The position numbers and the translations under genes were made by a program. DNA of 64,000 bases from Escherichia coli O127:H6 str. E2348/69 (GTDB lineage Bacteria; Pseudomonadota; Gammaproteobacteria; Enterobacterales; Enterobacteriaceae): the NCBI RefSeq assembly GCF_000026545.1, contig NC_011601.1. The stretch is one strand, 5' to 3'. A model generated the notes under the pieces. The model was not told the DNA's origin. It saw only the letters and a list, made by a program, of their open reading frames with translations, and searched no databases. Of this stretch, positions 18,533 through 18,546 are shown in pieces; within the stretch, counting starts at the first letter, position 1; each line of letters begins with the position of its first letter.

Positions 18533-18546
18533 TACATATCGTTACA
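18533..18546 (+). promoter_or_regulatory. RstA box (TACATATCGTTACA) in asr promoter region
   Basis: exact match to the RstA consensus TACATNTNGTTACA as I recall it, about 105 bp upstream of asr ATG; rstAB is encoded in this window. Confidence 0.45.

Follow-up and report, generated by a model that had tools for sequence, protein, structure and literature searches.

The RstA box of the acid-shock operon asr-ydgU in Escherichia coli E2348/69 and its conservation across Enterobacteriaceae and Erwiniaceae

In EPEC O127:H6 strain E2348/69, the element TACATATCGTTACA (positions 18533-18546, plus strand) is almost certainly an RstA box through which RstA switches on the acid-shock operon asr-ydgU. 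It consists of two TACA direct repeats spaced 10 bp apart and occupies positions -68 to -55 of the asr promoter. All positions refer to the window, which is the whole 64-kb stretch of DNA that was analysed. Neither the site nor the operon is new: an RstA box before asr was described in 2007, and the asr-ydgU operon and its feedback on RstB in papers from 2024 to 2026. As far as can be judged from the papers that cite it (PMC4117788; PMC9026648; PMC13425233), the asr RstA box found in K-12 by genomic SELEX (Ogasawara et al., 2007) is the same element, at the same position, before the same gene and for the same regulator, and the host strain alone differs. The consensus, the footprint limits and the start site used below are likewise taken in the form in which later papers give them when citing Ogasawara 2007 and Suziedeliene 1999.

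The genes of the system are all encoded on the plus strand of the window. The gene asr (18650-18958) encodes a periplasmic acid-shock protein of 102 aa (NCBIfam NF033636, 98.9 bits vs. a cut-off of 50), in agreement with RefSeq, and ydgU (19051-19134), renamed samT in 2026, encodes a 27-aa inner-membrane peptide (NF052476, 70.3 bits vs. 24) that exerts negative feedback on RstB (PMC13425233). Further downstream, rstA (29433-30152; NF007977, 484.8 bits vs. 330) encodes a response regulator of the OmpR/PhoB family and rstB (30156-31457; NF007898, 833.3 bits vs. 478) a sensor histidine kinase. Both are intact open reading frames, and the cognate regulator and the kinase of the RstA box are thus both present. 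Asr, YdgU, RstA, and RstB all score above their NCBIfam equivalog cut-offs (4/4), and the coordinates that the original prediction had given for the four genes are all correct when compared with the RefSeq annotation of E2348/69 and the list of open reading frames. The 1-kb region around the box (18300-19300) matches the E2348/69 chromosome at 100% identity and was found in 5,422 of 5,426 complete E. coli genomes, and YdgU differs from its K-12 counterpart in a single residue (A21 here, T21 in K-12).

A longer asr reading frame of 111 aa, starting at the in-frame ATG at 18623, was rejected because other species show indels and no conservation in this region, and the 102-aa frame starting at 18650 was kept. 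This second in-frame ATG at 18623 is made by a direct repeat, AATGAAAAAA, that occurs at 18622-18631 and 18649-18658. Between ynfM and asr lies a small open reading frame on the minus strand (18275-18394) with 39 aa when counted from the first ATG and 23 aa in the RefSeq version (18275-18346); the frame matches the NCBIfam entry NF033695 'KPN_01571 family protein' (63.3 bits vs. 35). Elsewhere in the window, GGATGTTGTAACTAA (31505-31519), immediately upstream of tus, matches the Ter replication-terminus core with one mismatch and is presumably TerB. The sole Rfam hit in the window is a full-length STnc490 (Hfq-binding sRNA) on the minus strand at 50914-51037 (146 bits vs. a gathering score of 56).

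The RstA consensus on which the original prediction had relied turned out to be the published form TACATNTNGTTACA, as quoted from Ogasawara 2007 in PMC4117788, and the box matches it at 12 of 12 specified positions. E. coli asr carries the canonical TACA repeat (PMC4117788). No other exact match to TACATNTNGTTACA occurs in the 64 kb of the window, and 100 dinucleotide-preserving shuffles give an expectation of 0.01. With two mismatches allowed, four matches are found against 4.35 expected, which is the chance level. As such looser patterns occur at chance frequency, the exact site alone stands out, and the loosened patterns support no second candidate target of RstA in the window.

The segment 18511-18702 is base-identical to K-12 MG1655, so that the promoter mapping from K-12 can be transferred without adjustment. 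As given in PMC9026648, the RstA box extends from -77 to -55 and a PhoB box from -39 to -22, and a spacer of 9 bp separates the latter from the -10 element. The wild-type spacer TCCCAGGGA, found in the supplementary table of PMC9026648, corresponds to 18580-18588 of the window, and the 129-bp functional promoter of the same study to 18521-18649. The spacer fixes the -10 hexamer TATAGT, directly after it, at 18589-18594 (conserved in 70-74 of the 74 promoters of the alignment described below), the transcription start +1, an A conserved in 74 of 74, at 18601, and the end of the 14-mer (18546) at exactly -55, all on the plus strand; the end of the RstA box at -55 and that of the PhoB box at -22 agree on this start. 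The motif therefore lies within the published RstA box region and inside the promoter, and the objection foreseen in the original prediction, that mapping of the start site might place it outside, fails. From the end of the box to the asr ATG (18650) there are 103 nt, close to the distance of about 105 bp first estimated. The asr promoter is without a recognisable -35, as is typical for an activator-dependent promoter, and a scan of 18250-19300 for sigma70 consensus promoters, which returned 0 sites, is uninformative for asr, whose promoter has no -35.

For the comparative set, one genome per species was scanned with the downstream protein YdgD, which gave 80 loci from Escherichia, Citrobacter, Kosakonia, Kluyvera, Buttiauxella, Cedecea, Erwinia, Pantoea, Mixta, and other genera. 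The order asr-ydgU-ydgD, with asr and ydgU directly upstream of ydgD, is found at 73 of the 80 loci. When the 200 nt upstream of asr are searched for the box, about 70 of 73 other species have TACA-N4-GTTACA as their best match, separated from the asr ATG by 96-113 nt, mostly 102-106, between flanks that cannot be aligned. At the level of sequence comparison, the asr promoter alignment is a clean phylogenetic footprint of the RstA box. Counted column by column over 74 distinct promoters from 74 species, GTACA (-69 to -65) and GTTACA (-60 to -55) are conserved in 72-74 of 74, the four positions between them (-64 to -61) are variable, the sequence upstream of -71 is unalignable, and -30 to -13 is unconserved. 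T5 and T7 of the published RstA consensus are unconserved outside Escherichia and Citrobacter, whereas an invariant G precedes the first TACA, so that the functional core is GTACA-N4-GTTACA and not the full 14-mer. The invariance of this G is in keeping with the Arg207-G5 contact seen in the crystal structure of Klebsiella pneumoniae RstA with DNA. The DNA-binding domain of the RstA encoded in the window matches the K. pneumoniae RstA structures 4NHJ and 2MLK and is identical to them over DRSVDVAISRLRKKL, the presumed recognition helix. In the complex of RstA with the K. pneumoniae asr box (4NHJ; PMC4117788), two DNA-binding domains sit head-to-tail on tandem half-sites 10 bp apart; that site is an imperfect TACA/TACT repeat, whereas the site in the window is the canonical TACA/TACA.

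In E. coli, a perfect 8-nt inverted repeat, TTCAGCGT/ACGCTGAA (18522-18529 and 18546-18553), brackets the RstA box. It was rejected as a general feature because its upstream arm lies in a region that is unconserved in other genera, and in several of these the RstA box instead directly borders a terminator hairpin that belongs to the gene upstream.

The match could in principle be a functionless chance occurrence, as looser versions of the motif are indeed as frequent in the window as chance predicts, but this is the least probable of the explanations considered and comes close to being negligible. The exact match is expected only 0.01 times per window, and the distance to asr is nearly fixed in about 70 of 73 other species that belong to two bacterial families. 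In published mutagenesis, deletion or scrambling of the box abolished the binding of RstA, which otherwise shifts the asr promoter in EMSA (strain LF82; PMC11135836), and saturation mutagenesis of the RstA box gave variants at 1.6-40% of wild-type promoter strength (PMC9026648).

Published experiments also connect RstA itself with activation. Purified RstA together with the sigma70 holoenzyme activates Pasr in vitro, and its binding to the promoter was shown by DRaCALA (K-12; PMC13425233). The acid induction of a Pasr fusion needs rstAB (PMC13425233). The expression of rstAB is in turn raised by PhoQP under low magnesium. The window contains a PhoP-box-like sequence with two mismatches, TGTTTA-gaaac-GATTGA (29360-29376), about 60 nt ahead of the rstA start codon, which fits the published PhoQP-to-RstBA cascade; at two mismatches the pattern is found 24 times in the window against 15.9 expected, which is only mildly above chance.

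It is very unlikely that the site mainly serves another regulator of the OmpR/PhoB family, such as PhoB or OmpR, with RstA in a secondary role. Historically, the control of asr was attributed to phoBR, and a PhoB box has been placed at -39 to -22. That box, CTCACGGAAGTCTGCCAT (18562-18579, plus strand; PMC9026648), is a separate element from the 14-mer, however, and scores 12 of 18 against the Pho-box consensus. Of its two CTGTCAT-like repeats, 11 bp apart, the left half has 2-4 of 7 matching positions in all species, while the right half has from 0 to 7 of 7 depending on the species and is unconserved outside Escherichia (74 species). For OmpR the case is built on csgD, where one DNA motif serves both RstA and OmpR, and on the report that asr can be activated by either RstA or OmpR (NAR 2014; PMC4117788). 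On the other side, it is the box that RstA needs for binding, RstA alone suffices to activate Pasr in vitro, and the acid induction of Pasr depends on rstAB.

Between the RstA box and the -35 region, the alignment contains a further conserved block of 24 bp, with the consensus cGCcGAtACCAAtCACTCACgGAA (18547-18570, plus strand; -54 to -31). Most of its positions are conserved in 68-74 of 74 promoters, which almost equals the RstA box itself. It holds a third repeat in the same 10-bp phase, which reads GATACC in most species but GAAACC (18551-18556) in E. coli; CACTCAC-GGAA comes after it, with CACTCAC at 18560-18566. The block could be a second RstA site, a site for a co-factor or a contact of the polymerase. 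The RstA box is centred near -61.5, which is a class I position, yet conservation runs to -31, so that the complete activating complex may comprise more than one RstA dimer bound to the 14-mer. Downstream of the start site, the asr mRNA would begin with a stem-loop, GGCCCC-GCAGU-GGGGUU (18604-18620, plus strand; +4 to +20), with a predicted stability of -9 kcal/mol. This stem-loop, including its loop, is nearly invariant in the 74 species, and the remaining 5' UTR varies. Its energy is no better than that of shuffled sequence, and it is the conservation that is notable. A search of 18400-19300 against Rfam, with E-values up to 10, gave no match for this hairpin or for those in the asr-ydgU spacer.

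The orthologues of Asr and YdgU are adjacent and on the same strand; from the asr stop to the ydgU start there are 92 nt in the window and 55 to 297 nt among the species. The spacer of E. coli contains two hairpins on the plus strand. The first, GGCGCG-CCCCCU-CGCGCC (18977-18994; -10 kcal/mol), is restricted to Escherichia and a subset of Citrobacter. When the full spacer is folded to its energy minimum, the CCCCCUC of this hairpin pairs instead with the ydgU ribosome-binding site GGAGGG (19041-19046, plus strand), which lies 4 nt before the ydgU ATG and of which GGAG is conserved in the alignment; this predicted pairing suggests a lineage-specific switch between two structures. The second hairpin (19004-19032) has a terminator-like stem of 12 bp and ends 18 nt before the ydgU ATG. 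It is followed by GGAGGG, in line with the strong GGAGG ribosome-binding site behind an asr 3' hairpin that had been noticed at the outset. Its inner 11 pairs reach -17.9 kcal/mol (z = -6.6) and the stem-loop is GC-rich as in an intrinsic terminator, but the tail, CCUUUAGC, has 3 U and is not the U-rich tract that such a terminator carries. The terminator scan did not call this hairpin, because its U tract is weak, and called only a weak stem in the end of the asr coding region and two sites on the minus strand.

In other species the equivalent hairpin was counted by detection in each sequence separately, with shuffled sequences as control. A stem of at least 7 bp that ends 16-21 nt before the ydgU ATG is present in 64 of 70 distinct species sequences, compared to 3 of 70 shuffled ones, and 55 of the 70 have at least 5 U in the 10 nt after the hairpin. 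Compared with these U-rich tails, the E. coli hairpin with its 3 U looks like a weakened terminator. The position of the hairpin is fixed and its stem differs by clade (CGGTGC in Escherichia; CGGCGC in Citrobacter, Kosakonia, and Kluyvera; CACCCG in Erwiniaceae and Buttiauxella). RNAalifold, applied to a MAFFT alignment of the 50 nt before ydgU, found no consensus structure, because the stems are not sequence-homologous between clades and their arms are misaligned.

The original prediction held that ydgU is co-transcribed with asr by read-through. Published reporters, northern blots, and ribosome profiling bear this out, and the comparative analysis supports the architecture. At pH 4.4, ribosome profiling showed an induction of about 2^9-fold for asr and ydgU each, and the two were described as one transcriptional unit (PMC10746267). 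In northern blots at pH 5, the signals of asr and samT (ydgU) are RstA-dependent (PMC13425233). Placed in a reporter, the sequence directly before ydgU shows negligible promoter activity, and the region upstream of asr drives a PhoQP-dependent response (PMC11429745). A promoter of its own for ydgU within the spacer, with no read-through from the asr promoter, is for these reasons slightly less credible still than a main role for PhoB or OmpR. The stable hairpin between the genes and a spacer of 55 to 297 nt would fit such a promoter and leave room for it, but the induction of ydgU depends on RstA and parallels that of asr, and in nearly all species the U tract and the ribosome-binding site fill the last 20 nt ahead of the ATG. 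The consensus scan of 18250-19300, which includes the asr-ydgU spacer, found no promoter-like site, and this is weak evidence on a ydgU promoter.

No terminator hairpin follows ydgU, and read-through into ydgD is possible. The ydgU-ydgD spacer contains CTGATTTTACTCCCACTTT (19145-19163) and CCGTCTATAGT, the latter with a -10-like hexamer TATAGT (19178-19183), both conserved from Escherichia to Pantoea. They are probably parts of an activator-dependent ydgD promoter.

Taken together with the literature, the activation of asr-ydgU by RstA would proceed as follows. RstB would phosphorylate RstA at acid pH, or when PhoQP raises the expression of rstAB, and an RstA dimer would bind head-to-tail to the two TACA repeats. 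Bound RstA would then recruit or activate the sigma70 RNA polymerase at a promoter that has a good -10 (TATAGT) and no usable -35; the mode of contact between RstA and the polymerase is inferred. The asr mRNA would start at 18601, and those polymerases that pass the hairpin at 19004-19032 would also transcribe ydgU. Partial termination at this hairpin may set the ratio of Asr to SamT. The peptide YdgU/SamT, which gave a strong two-hybrid interaction with RstB and acts as negative feedback (PMC13425233), would bind RstB in the membrane and damp the system, while Asr, which independently exerts positive feedback (PMC13425233), would act in the opposite direction. Of this scheme, the box-dependent binding of RstA, the activation in vitro, the RstA-dependent co-expression, and the interaction of SamT with RstB have been demonstrated in published experiments, and the sequence analysis shows where the box lies, that it is unique in the window and deeply conserved, and how -10, start site, hairpin, and genes are arranged. 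The asr-samT operon with its dual feedback on RstB-RstA described in that study (NAR 2026) has the same genes, the same 92-nt spacing, and the same ribosome-binding sites, and nothing substantive differs from the locus in the window.

A related arrangement is that of MgrB and PhoQ. Like MgrB, YdgU is a small membrane peptide that is encoded by a direct target of a two-component system, binds its sensor kinase, and damps signalling. The two differ in peptide family and in kinase; moreover, mgrB is transcribed as a single gene, while ydgU comes second in an operon of two genes and lies behind a hairpin.

The conserved elements next to the box may have regulatory functions of their own, although this is a tentative proposal that we consider rather doubtful. 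The hairpin before ydgU might be an attenuator that fixes or tunes the amount of feedback peptide made per Asr, the block from -54 to -31 might bind a second RstA dimer or an unnamed co-factor, and the 5'-UTR hairpin might be a site for a protein or an sRNA and not a simple stabiliser. No description of these three elements was found in the accessible literature, in which PMC13425233 was judged by its main text; in that main text the terminator-like hairpin before ydgU is not discussed, 'terminator' occurs only in the title of a reference, and 'hairpin' is absent.

As the box and the operon were already known, the unaided reading of the raw sequence serves as a positive control: it correctly picked out a genuine regulatory site together with its regulator and recognised an operon. 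Beyond this, the comparative data refine the core of the RstA motif to GTACA-N4-GTTACA, and the ydgU hairpin, the block from -54 to -31, and the 5'-UTR hairpin, as conserved neighbours of the RstA box, are modest leads for acid-stress signalling.
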